From Escherichia coli (GTDB lineage: Bacteria > Pseudomonadota > Gammaproteobacteria > Enterobacterales > Enterobacteriaceae), in NCBI RefSeq assembly GCF_011045215.1, contig NZ_CP049201.1: a stretch of 64,000 bases of DNA. One strand, given 5' to 3'. Both the position numbers and the translations under genes were made by a program. This document shows, one piece after another, positions 4,790 to 29,061 of the stretch. The notes under the pieces were generated by a model. It was not told the DNA's origin. It saw nothing but the letters and a program-made list of their open reading frames with translations, and did not search any database. How positions within the stretch are numbered: position 1 is the stretch's first letter; the number at the start of each line of letters is the position of its first letter.

Positions 4790-7465
4790 TTACTTCAACA
4801 TATTACGAATGACATAATGCAAAATGCCGTCGTTCTGGTAGTAGGTCAACTCCGTCGCGGTGTCGATACGACAACGGCAGGGTACGACTTCCTGGCTACC
4901 ATCCGCGCGCGTAAGCGTCACCGGAACCGTCGCGCCGGGTTGTAGGTTTTGCAGATCGCCAATATCAATCTTCTCTTCCCCGGTTAGCCCTAACGTTTTA
5001 CGCGTTACGCCTTGCGGAAATTCCAGCGGCAGGATGCCCATGCCAATTAAATTCGAACGGTGAATTCGTTCAAACGATTCGGCAATCACCACACGAATAC
5101 CAAGCAGACGCGGACCTTTTGCCGCCCAGTCACGGCTGGAGCCTGATCCATACTCTTTCCCGGCAATCACCGCCAGCGGCGTTTGCTCCTGCTTATAGCG
5201 CATCGCAGCATCATAAATAGAGACTACGTCGCTGTCAGGTAAATGCCGCGTCATCCCCCCTTCAACGCCAGGCACCATTTCATTACGGATGCGAATATTG
5301 GCGAAGGTGCCGCGCATCATCACTTCATGGTTACCACGCCGCGAACCGTAGGAGTTAAAGTCTTTTCGCTCAACACCCCGACCTTGTAGGTATCGACCCG
5401 CTGGGCTGTCGGGCTTAATACTGCCCGCCGGAGAGATATGGTCAGTGGTGACTGAATCCCCCAGCATTGCGAGGATCCGCGCACCGTGAATATCTTCCAC
5501 AGGTGCTGGTGTTGCCTGCATTTCATCAAAGAAAGGCGATAAACGAATATAGGTTGAATCCTCCTGCCATCCGTAGGTATCGGATCGTGCGACGTTAATT
5601 TCTTTCCACTCTGCAGTGCCTTCAAAGACTTCTGCGTACTCTTTGCGGAACATTTCTGTGGAGACTTGTTCTACCGCACGGGCAATTTCTTGTGCCGATG
5701 GCCAGATATCTTTCAGATATATTGGATCGCCTTTACGATCATGACCAATAGGCTCAGAAGCCAGGTTGATATTCATATTTCCCGCCAGCGCATAAGCAAC
5801 CACCAGCGGCGGCGAGGCCAACCAGTTGGTTTTAACCAGCGGATGGATACGGCCTTCAAAGTTACGGTTGCCGGACAGCACTGCACCGACGGTTAAATCG
5901 CCTTTTTTGATTGCCGTTTCGATAGGATCGGGCAGCGGCCCAGAGTTACCAATACAGGTGGTACAACCGTATCCCACAAGGTTAAACCCCAGTTCGTCGA
6001 GATACGGTGTAAGTTTCGCTTTTGCCAGATAATCAGAAACGACTTTCGAACCCGGTGCCAGCGACGCTTTGACCCACGGTTGCCGCTTGAGGCCCAGAGT
6101 TACGGCTTTTTTCGCCAGCAAGCCTGCGGCCATCAGCACACTTGGGTTAGAGGTGTTGGTGCACGAGGTTATCGCAGCAATGACCACAGCGCCATCAGGT
6201 AACTGATACTGATGTCCGTTCATAACATAATCGACCGGCTGGCGATCTTTATGCGTGGCATTCACTTCCAGTTCGTTACTGGCGGCAAATGCTTTTGGTA
6301 CATCGGGCAGTGCAACGCGATCCTGTGGGCGTTTAGGCCCTGCCAGGCTCGCTTCAACGTCATTCATATCCAGTTCTAACGTACTGGTAAAAATCGGTTC
6401 ATCGCCCGGGTTACGCCACATGCCCTGCGCTTTGGCATATTTTTCGACCAACTCGACCTGATCTTCGCTGCGCCCGCTTAAACGCATGTAATCGAGGGTT
6501 ACAGCATCGATTGGGAAGAAGCCACAGGTGGCACCATATTCTGGCGACATATTGGCAATGGTGGCGCGATCCGCCAACGGTAGTGAATCCAGACCATCAC
6601 CATAAAATTCGACGAATTTCCCCACCACGCCATGTTTGCGCAGCATTTGGGTAACAGTGAGAACCAGGTCTGTAGCGGTAATACCTTCACGTAATTTTCC
6701 GGTAAGTTTAAAGCCCACTACGTCCGGGATAAGCATGGAAACCGGCTGGCCTAACATTGCGGCTTCTGCTTCGATGCCACCCACGCCCCACCCCAACACG
6801 CCAAGGCCGTTTATCATAGTGGTGTGCGAGTCAGTACCAACGAGTGTATCCGGATAAGCAATCCATTCACCGTCCTGCAATTCGCTCCACACTGCTTTGC
6901 CGAGATATTCGAGGTTAACCTGATGGCAAATGCCTGTGCCTGGCGGCACGACGCTAAACCGACTGAACGCCTGCTTTCCCCATTTCAGGAACACATAACG
7001 TTCGTGGTTGCGCTCCATTTCCAGGCGTACGTTTTCTTCAAATGCCTCATCATCACCAAAACGATCGACGGTCACCGAGTGGTCAATGACCAGGTCGACC
7101 GGTGAGAGCGGGTTAACCTTTGCAGTATCGCCGCCGAGGCGTTTAACCGCTTCGCGCATTGCAGCGAGATCAACAACGGCAGGTACGCCGGTAAAGTCCT
7201 GCATCAGCACCCTTGCCGGGCGGTAGGCAATTTCACGGTCAGCATGGGCATTTTTCAGCCATCCCGCCAGCGCGTGGATATCCTCTTCGGTAACCGAGTT
7301 ACCATCCTGCCAGCGCAGCAGGTTTTCGAGCAAAACTTTGAGTGACTTGGGTAGACGGGTGATATCGCCCAGTGATTTGGCAGCAAGCGGCAGGCTGTAG
7401 TAGTGGTAAGTTTTATCTTTGGCCTGCAACGTGTCCTTACTGGCTTCTCGTAGGGTTGACGACAT
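4790..7465 (-). CDS. acnA: Aconitate hydratase A
   Basis: 891-aa ORF with aconitase-family motifs; matches recalled AcnA. Confidence 0.97.
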
Positions 7466-16443: not shown

Positions 16444-16655
16444 AGAGCTTCCTTTTGGTGTCGCCTTCCCAGGCGTCTGATATGCTTTTGTGCAACAGTG
16501 AGTCAGAACTTACATCTGACTCACTGATAGTAAAGTCTGTTTGAACTCTTCAGGCCTTAAGTAAACGACTCGACGTTTTAACTGGCCTGGCTTTGAGGCG
16601 CAACATACTACACTATCTTTATGGTTAAAGCTTGTTTCGATTAACATCAGCTTAA

Positions 16656-18551
16656 TTACCAGCCACCACCGCCTCCGCCACCCGCGCCGCCGCCAGAACC
16701 ACCACCGGAATAGCTCCGCCCCAACAAACTGGTATAGGCCCCGCAACTCAGGTGCGTCTGTAATGAGAATAAAACGCCACTACGGGCAATTTCCGGGGCG
16801 CTAACAGCCGCTGTGAGTGATGGGGTGATACGTGCTGCCCATTCTCTTCCAAGATTTGCTGAGACTGCCCAACCTAGCAACGCGTAATCCAGTTTCCGTG
16901 TTTCCCCTTTCCGCCGCCGCCCACTGTGTGTTGCCGCCTCTTTACGCGCAAGATAGTTAACGATAGCTTCACCGTGGGCATAACGTTGCTGCCCAGTTTG
17001 GGTAAACTTTGGCAGAAAAATATACCCCATACCAGTGAGATAACCGGTCAGGAAAACAGCGCTAAAATAACCCGCTGACATATACCAGTAAAAGAATACA
17101 TCTCCGACATTGATATAGAGAGAATAAAAGGCCACGCCTGAACAAATCAGCGGTAAAAACAAAGTGATGATTACACGATTAACGCAAGGCTTGTCATCAT
17201 CGCGGGCAAACAAAAGCTCAAGGGAACAAAATAAAAAAGGAAGAAGCCAGCAGATCATAATAAACATATCGCCCACCAGACTCATTCCTGCCCAGCCTAC
17301 AGGACTCAGGTTACCGTAGAGAATGACCGCCAATATTGCCAGTCCACCCCATTGCAAAAACATATCAGGCCGGTAAAACGAAGACTTTTTACGCGGCAGA
17401 TAAAATTTCTGCATTCGTAAAAATGCCCTGCGTAACACTCTGTTTCGCCCACCGCTCAGAATAACCTTATCGCTTTTGCGAAATAACGCGTCCAGCAATA
17501 ACTGCTCTGCGGGCAGTAATTCAGCATTATTTCTGGTCGCGCCTTCATTAACACGAATTAGGGTTTGCTGGTTCTTGTCATACTGATCTTCCAGATGAAT
17601 TTTTCCTTTCACAATCAGATTTACGATATCAGCACAAAAACCTTTATCGTCATAAACCAGCTTCGCATCGAGACGTAACATGCCGGGCGTGTAATCGGGT
17701 GGAATGACATCAGTTTCCATCACTTCCACCGGCGTAAATTGCGGCCTGCGCTTCCAGAGATATAACCATCCACACGCCAGGAACAGGCACGGAAACCAAA
17801 TTAACAACGATGACGTAGAAGGTAAAAGAAGATGGCTGAAAATATTCGTCGTTTGTGGTACCGGGGCATTACCAAGTAAAGCGTGAGGCCAGCGGTAGAG
17901 TACCGTGAAATCTTCACGATAAAACGGATCGCGGGATTCAATTCTTCCGTCCTCAAGGATGCGGCCATTTCGATATGTGTCGCCCTCTTCTCCAGTAAAG
18001 AGATCGATTTCGCTAAATGGATTACCCGCGATATCAGGGAACTTGAGTGAAAATCGGGTCTTATAGATTTCAAACGGCCAGTGGTTACCAGTCACGTTCC
18101 AGATTAACAGATCTGAATCTCCCTCACGCTGGAAAGCATTTTTAACCTGATAATGAATTTGATAATGATAGTCGCCTTGAGGCAAGAAACGTTGTTTATC
18201 GCCCACGACAATACTCATTAACCCGATATGCCAGTCATGATGCCAGGGTTCAGGAATACCATCACGGGTGACGCCAACAATATGATAGTTCAGCAGTGCA
18301 GCGTCCCCATTAGGCTGCATCCATAGTCGTGGTAAATCACGATAAAATCCGTGCTTAATCTGCTGATTTCGCGCCTGAAAATGAATGTTCTCTTTGATGT
18401 CGAGCACCCCATCCGGTTGCAGAGTGGCTTCAACATCAAAGAGCGAGATCCCTTCTTCATAAGAAGGCATCTCCGTGTTTTTCGCATAACTTAACGAAGA
18501 GAAAAAAAGCCCAACTATCAATAGCAAAATGCAGCGAAACTTCCCTGCCAT
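16656..18551 (-). CDS. yciQ: YciQ, large membrane protein with glycine-rich C-terminus
   Basis: 631-aa ORF, signal peptide, several TM segments, C-terminal GGGSGGGAGGGGGGGW. Confidence 0.9.
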   Translation of the reverse strand: MAGKFRCILLLIVGLFFSSLSYAKNTEMPSYEEGISLFDVEATLQPDGVLDIKENIHFQARNQQIKHGFYRDLPRLWMQPNGDAALLNYHIVGVTRDGIPEPWHHDWHIGLMSIVVGDKQRFLPQGDYHYQIHYQVKNAFQREGDSDLLIWNVTGNHWPFEIYKTRFSLKFPDIAGNPFSEIDLFTGEEGDTYRNGRILEDGRIESRDPFYREDFTVLYRWPHALLGNAPVPQTTNIFSHLLLPSTSSLLIWFPCLFLACGWLYLWKRRPQFTPVEVMETDVIPPDYTPGMLRLDAKLVYDDKGFCADIVNLIVKGKIHLEDQYDKNQQTLIRVNEGATRNNAELLPAEQLLLDALFRKSDKVILSGGRNRVLRRAFLRMQKFYLPRKKSSFYRPDMFLQWGGLAILAVILYGNLSPVGWAGMSLVGDMFIMICWLLPFLFCSLELLFARDDDKPCVNRVIITLFLPLICSGVAFYSLYINVGDVFFYWYMSAGYFSAVFLTGYLTGMGYIFLPKFTQTGQQRYAHGEAIVNYLARKEAATHSGRRRKGETRKLDYALLGWAVSANLGREWAARITPSLTAAVSAPEIARSGVLFSLQTHLSCGAYTSLLGRSYSGGGSGGGAGGGGGGGW

Positions 18552-18578
18552 AGTCTTCCATCCGTGGAACGCAATTTG

Positions 18579-19199
18579 TTATAAGAAAGGCTTCACATCA
18601 CCTACGCCTTCACGCACCACGACCGGCGTATCATCGGTAAGATCAATAACCGTTGTTGGTTTCTGCCCGAGATAGCCACCGTGAATAATCAAATCCACCT
18701 GTTTTTCCAGACGGTCTTTAATTTCTTCCGGGTCCGATTCGGTAAATTCGCTGCCTGGCAGCATTAGCGAAGTGGAAAGCATCGGTTCGCCCAATGCTTC
18801 AAGCAACGCCTGCGCAATCGGGTTAGAAGGCACACGCATACCGATGGTTTTGCGTTTTTCCTGCAACAGACGGCGTGGCACTTCTTTCGTCCCTTTCAGG
18901 ATGAAGGTGTAGTTACCCGGCGTGTTGTTTTTCATCAAACGAAACGCAACGTTATCGACAAATGAATAGGTCGAGAGTTCAGAAAGATCGCGACACATCA
19001 GGGTAAAGTTGTGACCGTCCGGCAGCTGGCGAATACGACAAATACGCTCCATGGCGTTTTTATCTTCAATTTTACAGCCGAGCGCATAGCCGGAATCAGT
19101 TGGATAAACAATCACCCCGCCTTTGCGCACGATCTCCACCGCCTGGTTGATCAGACGTTGCTGTGGGTTATCTGGATGAATATAAAAAAACTGGCTCAT
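18579..19199 (-). CDS. yciO: YciO, YrdC/Sua5-family protein
   Basis: ORF track 18579..19235; recalled YciO begins MSQFFYIHPDNPQQRL, ATG at 19199, ATGA overlap with trpH stop. Confidence 0.9.
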   Translation of the reverse strand: MSQFFYIHPDNPQQRLINQAVEIVRKGGVIVYPTDSGYALGCKIEDKNAMERICRIRQLPDGHNFTLMCRDLSELSTYSFVDNVAFRLMKNNTPGNYTFILKGTKEVPRRLLQEKRKTIGMRVPSNPIAQALLEALGEPMLSTSLMLPGSEFTESDPEEIKDRLEKQVDLIIHGGYLGQKPTTVIDLTDDTPVVVREGVGDVKPFL

Positions 19200-20077
19200 A
19201 ATTCCCTCTCTGTGGTGTTCTGCGGCTGTTCCCATAGCTGCCAGACGCCTTCAACGCCTGCGGGCAGCCAGAGTTTACGACCCAGTTCGATCCACGGGCA
19301 TGGCTGATGAAAATCAGATCCTTGTGATGCCCATAAATGATGCTGACGCGCAAGTGTCGCCAGCTGGGTGCGTTCATTGGGCGATTGCTGGCACTGCGCG
19401 ACTTCCATCGCGTCGCCGTCGTGTTCGGCAAAATGCGCAACCAATCTTTTCAGCCATTTAGCACTAAGATTGTACCGCCCAGGATGAGCTAGCACCGCCT
19501 TACCGCCAGAATGATGAATGACATCAATAGCTTGTTCTATTGTACACCACTGTGGCGGAACGTATCCGGTTTTCCCGCGCGCCAGATACTTTTTAAAGAC
19601 ATCCGCCATTGAACTGGCTTTGCCGCACTCAACAAGGAAACGCGCAAAATGACCGCGCGTCACTGCGCCGCCCTGCGCCAGTCGTTGTGCGCCTTCCAGC
19701 GCCCCAGGTATTTGCGCTTTTTCAAGTCTTTCGGCAATTTGCTGCGCCCGCTGATTGCGCCGTTCTGTCTGCTGCGCGAGGAACTCACACATTAGCGGAT
19801 GAGTAATATCAATATTCAGCCCGACAATATGAATTTCATGATTTTCCCAGACCGTGGAAATTTCCACGCCGGGAATAAGATTCAGCGCCAGTCCCGAACG
19901 TGAAATTTCCTCTCTTGCTGGCGCGATTGCAGCTGTGGTGTCATGGTCGGTGATCGCCAGGGTGCCGACGCGCATCTCGACTGCACGGTGCACCAATGCT
20001 TCTGGCGTCAGGCAGCCATCGGAAGCTGTGGTATGGCTATGCAGATCGTAAATCACTGCGTAATTCGTGTCGCTCAA
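19196..20077 (-). CDS. rnm: TrpH/YciV PHP-domain 5'-3' exoribonuclease (RNase AM)
   Basis: 293-aa ORF, PHP metal-binding motifs (HSHTTASDG, ITDHD); divergent from trp operon as in E. coli. Confidence 0.9.
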   Translation of the reverse strand: MSDTNYAVIYDLHSHTTASDGCLTPEALVHRAVEMRVGTLAITDHDTTAAIAPAREEISRSGLALNLIPGVEISTVWENHEIHIVGLNIDITHPLMCEFLAQQTERRNQRAQQIAERLEKAQIPGALEGAQRLAQGGAVTRGHFARFLVECGKASSMADVFKKYLARGKTGYVPPQWCTIEQAIDVIHHSGGKAVLAHPGRYNLSAKWLKRLVAHFAEHDGDAMEVAQCQQSPNERTQLATLARQHHLWASQGSDFHQPCPWIELGRKLWLPAGVEGVWQLWEQPQNTTEREL

Positions 20078-20149
20078 GGCGCACTCCCGTTCTGGATAAT
20101 GTTTTTTGCGCCGACATCATAACGGTTCTGGCAAATATTCTGAAATGAG

Positions 20150-20190
20150 CTGTTGACAATTAATCATCGAACTAGTTAACTAGTACGCAA
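20150..20190 (+). promoter_or_regulatory. trp promoter with TrpR operator
   Basis: -35 TTGACA 20153-20158, -10 TTAACT 20176-20181, operator palindrome ACTAGTTAACTAGT overlapping -10. Confidence 0.85.
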
Positions 20191-20214
20191 GTTCACGTAA
20201 AAAGGGTATCGACA

Positions 20215-20259
20215 ATGAAAGCAATTTTCGTACTGAAAGCTTGGTGGCGCACTTCCTGA
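20215..20259 (+). CDS. trpL: trp leader peptide (14 aa, tandem Trp codons)
   Basis: ATG AAA GCA ATT TTC GTA CTG AAA GCT TGG TGG CGC ACT TCC TGA; reads [14 protein letters not shown]. Confidence 0.9.
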   Translation: [14 protein letters not shown]

Positions 20260-20301
20260 AACGGGCAGTGTATTCACCATGCGTAAAGCAATCAGATACC
20301 C

Positions 20302-20329
20302 AGCCCGCCTAATGAGCGGGCTTTTTTTT
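20302..20329 (+). terminator. trp attenuator (3:4 terminator hairpin)
   Basis: AGCCCGCCTAATGAGCGGGCT followed by TTTTTTTT, between trpL and trpE. Confidence 0.9.
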
Positions 20330-20350
20330 GAACAAAATTAGAGAATAACA

Positions 20351-21913
20351 ATGCAAACACAAAAACCGACTCTCGAACTGCTAACCTGCGAAGGCGCTTA
20401 TCGCGACAACCCGACTGCGCTTTTTCACCAGTTGTGTGGGGATCGTCCGGCAACGCTGCTGCTGGAATCCGCAGATATCGACAGCAAAGATGATTTAAAA
20501 AGCCTGCTGCTGGTAGACAGTGCGCTGCGCATTACAGCTTTAGGTGACACTGTCACAATCCAGTCCCTTTCCGGCAACGGCGAAGCCCTGCTGACACTAC
20601 TGGATAACGCCCTGCCTGCGGGTGTGGAAAATGAACAATTACCAAACTGCCGTGTGCTGCGCTTCCCCCCTGTTAGTCCACTGCTGGATGAAGACGCTCG
20701 CTTATGCTCCCTTTCGGTTTTTGACGCTTTCCGCTTATTGCAGAATCTGTTGAATGTACCGAAGGAAGAACGAGAAGCCATGTTCTTCGGCGGCCTGTTC
20801 TCTTATGACCTTGTGGCGGGGTTTGAAGATTTACCGCAACTGTCAGCGGAAAATAACTGCCCTGATTTCTGTTTTTATCTCGCTGAAACGCTGATGGTGA
20901 TTGACCATCAGAAAAAAAGCACCCGCATTCAGGCCAGCCTGTTTGCTCCGAATGAAGAAGAAAAACAACGTCTCACTGCTCGCCTGAACGATCTTCGCCA
21001 GCAACTGACCGAAACCGCGCCACCGCTGCCGGTGGTTTCCGTGCCGCATATGCGTTGTGAATGTAACCAGAGCGATGAAGAGTTCGGTGGCGTAGTGCGT
21101 TTGTTGCAAAAAGCGATTCGCGCTGGAGAAATTTTCCAGGTGGTGCCATCTCGCCGTTTCTCTCTGCCCTGCCCGTCACCGCTGGCGGCCTATTACGTGC
21201 TGAAAAAGAGTAATCCCAGCCCGTACATGTTTTTTATGCAGGATAATGATTTCACCCTGTTTGGCGCGTCGCCGGAAAGTTCGCTCAAGTATGACGCCAC
21301 CAGCCGCCAGATTGAGATCTACCCGATTGCCGGAACACGTCCACGCGGTCGTCGTGCCGATGGTTCACTGGACAGAGACCTCGACAGCCGCATCGAACTG
21401 GAAATGCGTACCGATCATAAAGAGCTTTCTGAACATCTGATGCTGGTGGATCTCGCCCGTAATGATCTGGCACGCATTTGCACCCCCGGCAGCCGCTACG
21501 TCGCCGATCTTACCAAAGTTGACCGTTACTCTTACGTGATGCACCTGGTCTCCCGCGTGGTCGGTGAGCTGCGCCACGATCTCGACGCCCTACACGCTTA
21601 CCGCGCCTGTATGAATATGGGTACGTTAAGCGGTGCGCCGAAAGTACGCGCTATGCAGTTAATTGCCGAGGCTGAAGGTCGTCGCCGCGGCAGCTACGGC
21701 GGCGCGGTAGGTTATTTCACCGCGCATGGCGATCTCGACACCTGCATTGTGATCCGCTCGGCGCTGGTGGAAAACGGTATCGCCACCGTGCAAGCCGGTG
21801 CTGGCGTAGTCCTTGATTCTGTTCCGCAGTCGGAAGCCGACGAAACCCGTAATAAAGCCCGCGCTGTACTGCGCGCTATTGCCACCGCGCATCATGCACA
21901 GGAGACTTTCTGA
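20351..21913 (+). CDS. trpE: Anthranilate synthase component I
   Basis: 520-aa ORF; matches recalled TrpE. Confidence 0.97.
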
Positions 21914-23508
21914 TGGCTGACATTCTGCTGCTCGATAATATCGACTCTTTTACGTACAACCTGGCAGATCAGTTGCGCAGCAATGGGCATAACGTGGTGA
22001 TTTACCGCAACCATATTCCGGCGCAAACCTTAATTGAACGCCTGGCGACGATGAGCAATCCGGTGCTGATGCTTTCTCCAGGACCCGGTGTGCCGAGCGA
22101 AGCTGGTTGTATGCCTGAACTGCTTACCCGCCTGCGCGGTAAGCTGCCTATTATTGGCATTTGCCTCGGTCATCAGGCAATTGTCGAAGCTTACGGGGGC
22201 TATGTCGGTCAGGCGGGCGAAATTCTCCACGGTAAAGCGTCGAGCATTGAACACGACGGTCAGGCGATGTTTGCCGGATTAACAAACCCATTGCCGGTGG
22301 CGCGTTATCACTCGCTGGTTGGCAGTAACATTCCGGCAGGTTTAACCATCAATGCCCATTTTAATGGCATGGTGATGGCAGTACGTCACGATGCGGATCG
22401 CGTTTGTGGATTCCAGTTCCATCCGGAATCCATTCTTACTACCCAGGGCGCTCGCCTGCTGGAACAAACGCTGGCCTGGGCGCAGCAGAAACTAGAGCCA
22501 ACCAACACGCTGCAACCGATTCTGGAAAAACTGTATCAGGCACAGACCCTTAGCCAACAAGAAAGCCACCAGCTGTTTTCAGCGGTGGTACGTGGCGAGC
22601 TGAAGCCGGAACAACTGGCGGCGGCGCTGGTGAGCATGAAAATTCGCGGCGAGCACCCGAACGAGATCGCCGGAGCAGCAACCGCGCTACTGGAAAACGC
22701 CGCGCCGTTCCCGCGCCCGGATTATCTGTTTGCCGATATCGTCGGCACCGGCGGTGACGGCAGCAACAGCATCAATATTTCTACCGCCAGTGCGTTTGTC
22801 GCCGCGGCCTGTGGGCTGAAAGTGGCGAAACACGGCAACCGTAGCGTCTCCAGTAAATCTGGTTCGTCCGATCTGCTGGCGGCGTTCGGTATTAATCTTG
22901 ATATGAACGCCGATAAATCGCGCCAGGCGCTGGATGAGTTAGGTGTTTGTTTCCTCTTTGCGCCGAAATATCACACCGGATTCCGCCACGCGATGCCGGT
23001 TCGCCAGCAACTGAAAACCCGCACCCTGTTCAATGTGCTGGGGCCATTGATTAACCCGGCGCATCCGCCGCTGGCGTTAATTGGTGTTTATAGTCCGGAA
23101 CTGGTGCTGCCGATTGCCGAAACCTTGCGCGTGCTGGGGTATCAACGCGCGGCGGTGGTGCACAGCGGCGGGATGGATGAAGTTTCATTACACGCGCCGA
23201 CAATCGTTGCCGAGCTGCACGATGGCGAAATTAAGAGCTATCAGCTCACCGCAGAAGACTTTGGCCTGACACCCTACCACCAGGAGCAACTGGCAGGCGG
23301 AACACCGGAAGAAAACCGTGACATTTTAACACGCTTGTTACAAGGTAAAGGCGACGCCGCCCATGAAGCAGCCGTCGCGGCGAACGTCGCCATGTTAATG
23401 CGCTTGCATGGCCATGAAGATCTGCAAGCCAATGCGCAAACCGTTCTTGAGGTACTGCGCAGTGGTTCCGCTTACGACAGAGTCACCGCACTGGCGGCAC
23501 GAGGGTAA
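21913..23508 (+). CDS. trpD: Anthranilate synthase component II / anthranilate phosphoribosyltransferase
   Basis: 531-aa ORF, glutamine amidotransferase N-domain plus PRT C-domain. Confidence 0.97.
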
Positions 23509-24881: not shown

Positions 24882-26075
24882 ATGACAACATTACTTAATC
24901 CCTATTTTGGTGAGTTTGGCGGCATGTACGTGCCACAAATCCTGATGCCTGCCCTGCGCCAGCTGGAAGAAGCTTTTGTCAGCGCGCAAAAAGACCCTGA
25001 ATTTCAGGCCCAGTTTAACGACCTTTTGAAAAACTATGCCGGACGCCCAACCGCGCTGACCAAATGCCAGAACATTACGGCTGGCACGAACACCACGCTG
25101 TACCTGAAGCGTGAAGATTTGCTGCACGGCGGCGCACACAAAACCAACCAGGTGCTCGGTCAGGCTTTGCTGGCGAAGCGAATGGGTAAAACCGAAATCA
25201 TCGCCGAAACCGGGGCTGGTCAGCATGGCGTGGCCTCTGCCCTTGCCAGCGCCCTGCTCGGCCTGAAATGCCGCATTTATATGGGGGCCAAAGACGTCGA
25301 GCGCCAGTCACCCAACGTTTTTCGTATGCGCTTAATGGGTGCGGAAGTGATCCCGGTGCATAGCGGTTCCGCAACGCTGAAAGATGCCTGTAACGAGGCT
25401 CTGCGCGACTGGTCCGGCAGTTATGAAACCGCGCACTATATGCTGGGTACCGCAGCCGGCCCACATCCTTACCCGACTATTGTCCGTGAGTTCCAGCGGA
25501 TGATTGGCGAAGAAACCAAAGCGCAGATTCTGGAAAGAGAAGGTCGCCTGCCGGATGCCGTTATCGCCTGTGTTGGCGGCGGTTCGAATGCCATCGGTAT
25601 GTTTGCAGATTTCATCAACGAAACCAACGTCGGCCTGATTGGTGTGGAGCCTGGTGGTCACGGTATCGAAACTGGCGAGCACGGCGCACCGCTAAAACAT
25701 GGTCGCGTGGGCATTTATTTCGGTATGAAAGCGCCGATGATGCAAACCGAAGACGGGCAGATTGAAGAATCTTACTCCATCTCCGCCGGACTGGATTTCC
25801 CGTCTGTCGGCCCACAACACGCGTATCTTAACAGCACTGGACGCGCTGATTACGTGTCTATTACCGATGATGAAGCCCTTGAAGCCTTCAAAACGCTGTG
25901 CCTGCACGAAGGGATCATCCCGGCGCTGGAATCCTCCCACGCCCTGGCCCATGCACTGAAAATGATGCGCGAAAACCCGGAAAAAGAGCAGCTACTGGTG
26001 GTTAACCTTTCCGGTCGCGGCGATAAAGACATCTTCACCGTTCACGATATTTTGAAAGCACGAGGGGAAATCTGA
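24882..26075 (+). CDS. trpB: Tryptophan synthase beta chain
   Basis: 397-aa ORF, PLP-enzyme motifs. Confidence 0.97.
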
Positions 26076-28948: not shown

Positions 28949-29061
28949 TTGACAGTTTTTGTTCTCCGGGGCTATATTCCTCACACAACCGCAAAATCGG
29001 TTGTCGGGATTGGCGTCCCGGATGTTTACGGAGCGATATAAGACGCGCCCGCGTCTTTTTT
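28949..29061 (+). ncRNA. Candidate small RNA: sigma70-like promoter, about 75-nt structured transcript, intrinsic terminator
   Basis: TTGACA 28949-28954, 18-bp spacer, TATATT 28973-28978; two internal hairpins (CAACCG..CGGTTG, CGGGA..TCCCG); terminator AGACGCG-CCC-GCGTCT + TTTTT at 29041-29061. Confidence 0.3.

Follow-up and report, generated by a model that had tools for sequence, protein, structure and literature searches.

A glycine-to-alanine variant of the Escherichia coli trp leader peptide that creates a HindIII site

The trp leader of Escherichia coli K-12 is the described system with which the attenuator analysed here is most directly compared. The K-12 leader and that of the window (the whole 64,000-nucleotide stretch of E. 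coli DNA under analysis, taken from contig NZ_CP049201.1 of assembly GCF_011045215.1) have the same promoter/operator, 14-codon open reading frame (ORF), Trp codons, stop codon, attenuator regions 2–4 and terminator; K-12 differs in having G at leader nucleotide (nt) 52, glycine at residue 9 of the leader peptide, no HindIII site and two fewer predicted base pairs in stem 1:2. In the strains that carry the leader peptide WP_001386774.1 (O104:H4, O145:H28, ATCC 8739 and others) the leader itself is the same as in the window, which is set apart from them solely by the mosaic of its flanking haplotypes. Other Enterobacteriaceae (Salmonella, Citrobacter, Enterobacter, Atlantibacter, Cedecea and Mangrovibacter) share the WWRTS-stop end of the ORF, a conserved 18-mer (TGGTGGCGCACTTCCTGA) and the terminator architecture, and for most of them folding likewise predicts a pair between the equivalent of nt 52 and the distal end of region 2. 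They differ in the N-terminal part of the peptide and carry Gly, Ser, Arg or Lys immediately before the Trp pair, never Ala. Attenuators of this kind also give rise to products that act in trans, the sRNA rnTrpL and the peptide peTrpL of E. coli and Sinorhizobium meliloti. The terminated transcript of the window, 140 nt long, corresponds to the molecule that a review describes as E. coli rnTrpL and reports to act with Hfq on the dnaA, sanA and mhpC mRNAs (PMC12612679).

By analogy with K-12, a ribosome translating trpL in the window would sense charged tRNA-Trp at codons 10 and 11. A ribosome stalled at these codons would cover region 1 and favor the 2:3 antiterminator, with transcription continuing into trpE; a ribosome reaching the stop codon would instead allow hairpins 1:2 and 3:4 to form, with termination as the outcome. 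The variant described below leaves the Trp codons, the stop codon, regions 2–4 and the promoter/operator of this device unchanged.

Codon 9 of trpL in the window is GCT (20239–20241), and the corresponding codon of K-12 (MC4100, locus L002) is GGT, just as an earlier note on this DNA had given it. That note had proposed that a Gly9Ala substitution in the leader peptide creates a HindIII site, and the sequence, its translation and a pattern search all bear this out. Its placement of AAGCTT two codons before the Trp pair needs correction: no codon separates codon 9 from the tandem Trp codons, and Trp codon 10 begins with the final T of the HindIII site. This restriction site is most simply seen as an accidental by-product of the substitution, because the ancestral AAGGTT differs from AAGCTT by a single base. 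In a 2.9-kb alignment with K-12, base 20240 is the sole difference across positions 20061–20409. The coordinates of the variant and of the surrounding elements are collected in Table 1.

Table 1. Features of the trp promoter, leader and attenuator in the window.
Feature	Coordinates	Strand	Description and basis
trp promoter	20153–20181	+	–35 TTGACA (20153–20158), 17-nt spacer, –10 TTAACT (20176–20181); overlaps the TrpR operator palindrome
Inferred transcription start (+1) of the trp leader RNA	20189	+	From K-12 numbering; the –10 hexamer ends 7 nt upstream
trpL leader-peptide ORF	20215–20259	+	14 codons plus stop (20257–20259); translated directly
Trp operon leader RNA element	20236–20329	+	Attenuator regions 1–4; Rfam RF00513 Trp_leader
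HindIII recognition sequence AAGCTT	20237–20242	+	Pattern search; K-12 has AAGGTT
Polymorphic base C (K-12: G)	20240	+	Leader nt 52, second base of codon 9, Gly>Ala; alignment and SNP matrix
Tandem Trp codons 10 and 11 (TGGTGG)	20242–20247	+	Sensing codons of the attenuator; read directly and translated
Leader nt 93–94 (GC)	20281–20282	+	Predicted partners of C52 and G51; ViennaRNA folding
Intrinsic terminator, hairpin 3:4	20302–20329	+	AGCCCGCC/GGCGGGCT followed by a run of 8 T; terminator scan
trpE	20351–21913	+	First structural gene under the attenuator; collinear with annotated trpE in loci L001 through L005

The stretch that we take, from established knowledge of the K-12 sequence, to be the trp promoter/operator is identical to its K-12 counterpart in the alignment. 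A generic σ70 promoter scan does not call the trp promoter because its –10 element matches TATAAT at only three of six positions, and the promoter coordinates therefore rest on the identity with K-12. The leader numbering is likewise adopted from K-12, where the AUG occupies nt 27–29; with the inferred start at 20189, the AUG of the window takes this place too and the variant base falls at nt 52. As a separate observation on the same stretch, ATCC 8739 (L004) carries two substitutions at the equivalents of positions 20168 and 20188, a C>T in the spacer/operator and a C>A at –1. Both are absent from the window and from the other four reference genomes used in this analysis, and they might affect TrpR binding or promoter strength.

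Downstream of the promoter, the Rfam model RF00513 is matched over its full length (model positions 1–100 of 100) with a score of 91.4 bits against a gathering score of 41 (E = 7.3e-20). The terminator scan describes the stem at 20302–20322 as seven pairs, six of them G-C, and RNA folding agrees. Folding also predicts mutually exclusive hairpins: 1:2 and 3:4 form in the free RNA, and 2:3 forms when nt 42–72 are masked as a mimic of a ribosome stalled at the Trp codons. A precomputed match to Pfam PF08255 (Leader_Trp) exists for the 14-residue gene in L103 and L104, two C-allele loci that are 99.95–99.97% identical to the window (L103, 99.95%). The ORF is short, carries its tandem Trp codons near the end and stops just before region 2, as is expected of an attenuator, and the element lies between the trp promoter/operator and trpE, the position required of the trp attenuator. 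The locus is a canonical ribosome-mediated trp attenuator with every testable defining feature in place, and from its identity with K-12 at all positions but one we infer that it supports tryptophan-dependent termination.

To count the two alleles we used megablast with an exact 28-base word, under which a 31-mer centered on the variant matches only genomes with the same central base. The C allele (GCT) occurs in 325 of 5,426 complete E. coli genomes and the G allele (GGT) in 5,064, the two together covering nearly all of the 5,421 complete genomes in which the region is present; the resulting C frequency of ~6% is not an unbiased population frequency, as the collection over-samples outbreak lineages such as O104:H4 and O145:H28. 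The comparison with other E. coli lineages that the earlier note had recommended finds GCT in O104:H4 outbreak strains, 55989, O145:H28, O169:H41 and ATCC 8739. Carriers come from humans, cattle, pigs, poultry, dogs, a rodent, wild animals, fish, food, sea water and waste water, and the note's leading suggestion, a natural strain polymorphism, is well supported by these 325 genomes from many hosts. An identical 301-bp promoter-leader stretch is found in O104:H4, 55989, O145:H28, O169:H41 and many animal isolates.

At the protein level, the Ala9 peptide is the RefSeq entry WP_001386774.1, common to O145:H28, ATCC 8739 and O104:H4, which are unrelated lineages; the peptide of K-12 and STEC276 is WP_001700591.1. 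Searches of the literature for the Ala9 peptide string and for trpL polymorphism retrieved no paper discussing this variant. The allele is nonetheless already known, since it is catalogued in RefSeq and the element is a textbook one, and the absence of papers on the polymorphism reflects its ordinariness, not novelty. Taken together, we consider it very likely that the variant is a natural G>C single-nucleotide polymorphism in the trp attenuator, that the HindIII site is accidental, that the allele originated in E. coli, and that the leader functions as in K-12 with a change that is probably neutral.

The direction of the change follows from the distribution of residues at this position in related species. 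Scanning one genome per species for the conserved 18-mer yielded 47 genuine enterobacterial trp leaders. Of these, 33 have Gly immediately before the Trp pair, 6 have Ser, 5 have Arg and 3 have Lys; none has Ala. The codon GGT is present in E. albertii, E. whittamii, Escherichia sp. MOD1-EC7003 and the E. coli representative. As the outgroups carry Gly, Gly is the ancestral state and Ala arose within E. coli; judged from these sequences, the codon-9 position is one that tolerates change. A side observation from the same survey is that many Citrobacter trp leaders (L007, L009, L014, L019, L027, L041 and others) contain a second possible start, an in-frame ATG further upstream from which the peptide would run to ~20 residues (MKKVSEMKA...), and the longer ORF may be an artefact of picking the most distant in-frame ATG.

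To place the allele in its chromosomal context, the window was compared with five reference genomes, K-12 (MC4100), STEC276, O145:H28, ATCC 8739 and O104:H4 (C227-11). Among complete RefSeq genomes of E. coli, identity to the window backbone does not rise above about 98.6%, and the lineage of the window seems to be missing from the complete-genome set. In a sliding-window comparison many segments are nearly identical to O145:H28. A patch in trpB (25000–25500) shows 39 differences per 500 bp from each of K-12, STEC276, ATCC 8739 and O104:H4 and only 8 per 500 from O145:H28; yciQ (16500–19000) shows 13–41 mismatches per 500 bp against the five references; and trpD (22000–22500) shows 21–23 per 500 against all five. 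The TrpD protein of the window is identical to a very common sequence, so the divergence in trpD is synonymous, and six loci with the same TrpD, 96.4–98.2% identical to the window, carry G at the variant position. The pattern of divergence in yciQ, trpD and trpB is that of a recombination mosaic. Apart from its place in this pattern, yciQ (DUF2207; 16656–18551, minus strand) is intact in the window, encoding 631 residues; the STEC276 annotation treats it as a pseudogene containing an internal stop, and that of O104:H4 C227-11 lists no such gene between rluB and yciO. It looks like a gene that is dispensable and evolves fast.

The immediate flanks of trpL show the same shuffling. In the 2.9-kb alignment a set of distinctive SNPs in rnm is common to the window and O145:H28, and in a block of trpE (20561–21100) the window has 0–2 differences from O145:H28 and ATCC 8739, compared with 16–18 from K-12. 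This trpE haplotype is wider than the C allele: 494 genomes match it at ≥99%, and a 31-mer marker for it is present in 766 genomes, including those of O157:H7, which carry G. O104:H4 carries C on flanks that are largely K-12-like, both upstream (19053–20060) and downstream (20410–20416 and 20564–21100). The simplest history that these alignments suggest is a single origin of the C allele followed by recombinational shuffling; the allele arose within E. coli and circulates on several flanking haplotypes across unrelated lineages, a distribution that fits the regional recombination mosaic.

An alternative history, in which G>C occurred several times rather than once with subsequent recombinational spread, draws its support from O104:H4, whose C allele stands on K-12-like flanks with no linked markers between 20061 and 20409. 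In the window, O145:H28 and ATCC 8739, however, C is joined to one and the same distinctive haplotype of trpE, and O104:H4 is itself patchy, with several haplotype switches within 2 kb of the kind that recombination would produce. G>C transversions are moreover among the rarer spontaneous changes, and we regard recurrence as unlikely.

In the folding predictions (ViennaRNA), C52 lengthens hairpin 1:2 at its foot by two pairs, G51:C94 and C52:G93, with pairing probabilities of 0.70–0.91 for C and 0.00–0.05 for G and a predicted stabilization of 0.6–2.8 kcal/mol depending on context. Regions 1 and 2 taken alone (nt 45–100) fold with –20.6 kcal/mol for C and –17.8 kcal/mol for G, and the full 141-nt leader with –47.6 and –46.9 kcal/mol, respectively. 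In the ribosome-free RNA the probability of hairpin 1:2 is ~0.94–0.95 for both alleles and that of 2:3 is near 0; with nt 42–72 masked, both alleles give an identical 2:3 antiterminator of –16.8 kcal/mol. The Rfam RF00513 consensus places the variant at model position 5, which is unpaired; the equivalent of nt 52 is predicted to be paired in 32 of 36 distinct leaders of other species, with a median probability of 0.79. Both alleles fall within the span of stem energies of the other enterobacterial leaders, –15.5 to –23.6 kcal/mol; Escherichia leaders with G lie at its weak end, those with C in the middle.

The two extra pairs at the foot of hairpin 1:2 are the only effect predicted for C52, and through them termination in tryptophan excess could become very slightly tighter. 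Basal read-through under these conditions might be marginally lower with C, at most. The response to starvation would be unaffected, since a stalled ribosome covers nt 52. The peptide change is probably neutral too, as residue 9 varies naturally among Gly, Ser, Arg and Lys in related genera. Our reading, drawn from these predictions and comparisons, is that the Ala9 allele is probably near-neutral, with little or no regulatory effect. Two observations pull the other way: the stabilization of the isolated hairpin, which reaches 2.8 kcal/mol, is not trivial, and no other species in the sample has Ala before the Trp pair.

The opposite reading holds that C52 is adaptive, either by strengthening the foot of hairpin 1:2 (the anti-antiterminator) and so lowering basal read-through of the trp operon where tryptophan is plentiful in the habitat, or by altering the trans activity of rnTrpL or of the leader peptide, and that selection, in place of drift and hitch-hiking, aided its recombinational spread across phylogroups. 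It gains from the strong contrast in predicted pairing at 51:94 and 52:93, from the tendency of other genera to pair the nt-52 equivalent where Escherichia G leaves the stem at the weak end of the family, from the presence of C on more than one flanking haplotype in unrelated lineages, and from the report that the E. coli leader transcript is an Hfq-dependent sRNA (PMC12612679). Against this, hairpin 1:2 already dominates the ribosome-free RNA of both alleles and the alleles become identical once the ribosome footprint is masked, which leaves little room for an effect; the full-length leaders differ by only 0.6–0.7 kcal/mol; the curated Rfam consensus leaves the position unpaired; and the frequency of C is modest, its flanks belonging to a general recombination mosaic in which spread needs no selection. 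We regard an adaptive role as unlikely. Duplex prediction with ViennaRNA for rnTrpL and dnaA returned only full-length duplexes, the method ignoring intramolecular structure, and was discarded.

The surroundings of C52 are ordinary chromosome. Around the site, 29.2 kb of the window align collinearly with the chromosome of E. coli, in the gene order cysB, topA, yciN, sohB, yciK, cobO, rluB, yciQ, yciO, rnm, trpL, trpEDCBA and yciGFE seen in annotated E. coli. As the earlier note had remarked, the flanks bear no cloning scars: the rnm-trpL-trpEDCBA region is plain chromosome without a vector, linker or unnatural junction. An exact-protein lookup with the YciQ of the window identified 13 contigs, and the five loci compared (L102–L106) all carry C and are 99.94–100% identical to window positions 6656–28551, over up to 21.9 kb. 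They derive from two draft assemblies (GCA_013049485.1 and GCA_910665095.1) and three sequencing runs (SRR11014969, ERR3329136 and SRR8297619), and one independent run is 100% identical to the window over 21.9 kb. Five independent loci so nearly identical indicate that the lineage of the window has been sampled repeatedly and independently.

A search of a plasmid collection for vector-borne copies of the region returned only chromosomes or chromosomal fragments filed as plasmids. Several of the PLSDB records that match the trp region (H167, H168 and H171) are 4.8–4.9 Mb long and evidently chromosomes filed as plasmids, and such misfiled chromosomes probably explain the few places described as plasmid in the E. 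coli searches. The number of HindIII sequences in the window was also compared with dinucleotide-preserving shuffles: AAGCTT occurs 6 times where 17 ± 4.4 are expected, and at least 6 copies are present in 100 of 100 shuffles. The sequence is therefore under-represented, not enriched, and the HindIII site at trpL carries no statistical signal.

The earlier note had allowed that the site could mark an engineered construct, and had itself named a GCT codon common among natural isolates as the observation that would speak against this; the codon is indeed common in them. The idea that cloning left the HindIII site as a scar, or that it was placed on purpose and marks an engineered trp promoter-leader construct or strain, can be dismissed as extremely improbable, for the coincidence of a classic cloning enzyme's site with a classic regulatory element (the sole point in its favor from the sequence, beside the historical use of the trp promoter in expression vectors) is outweighed by an allele found in natural complete genomes of many hosts, countries and serotypes and not confined to laboratory strains, by the near-identical surveillance-type assemblies and runs, by a collinear chromosome with natural synonymous variation, by the purely chromosomal matches in the plasmid collection, by the scarcity of HindIII sites in the window and by a change of one base with no linker or other added sequence.

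The finding of a natural polymorphism is thus an ordinary one, and it removes a possible false flag for genetic engineering. The textbook K-12 leader represents the majority allele only, as ~6% of sequenced E. coli carry Ala9 and the HindIII site, and restriction maps or PCR-RFLP schemes based on K-12 will meet an extra HindIII site in C-allele strains. With the G and C alleles, nature supplies a ready comparison of how a more or less stable lower 1:2 stem affects basal attenuation; should the allele prove to tune attenuation or the activity of rnTrpL, it would be a modest case of a model regulatory RNA that varies in nature.

Beyond the trp region, the chromosomal backbone of the window ends at ~29200, just after yciE at the ompW locus, and gives way to prophage-like DNA. 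In related genomes ompW is annotated as a truncated remnant adjoining phage tail genes. The prophage-like DNA of the window is 77–85% identical to a prophage of STEC276, and a search of a phage collection with positions 29000–53000 returned weak matches, the best being to the tail-fibre genes of phiP27 (82% identity over 8% of the query).
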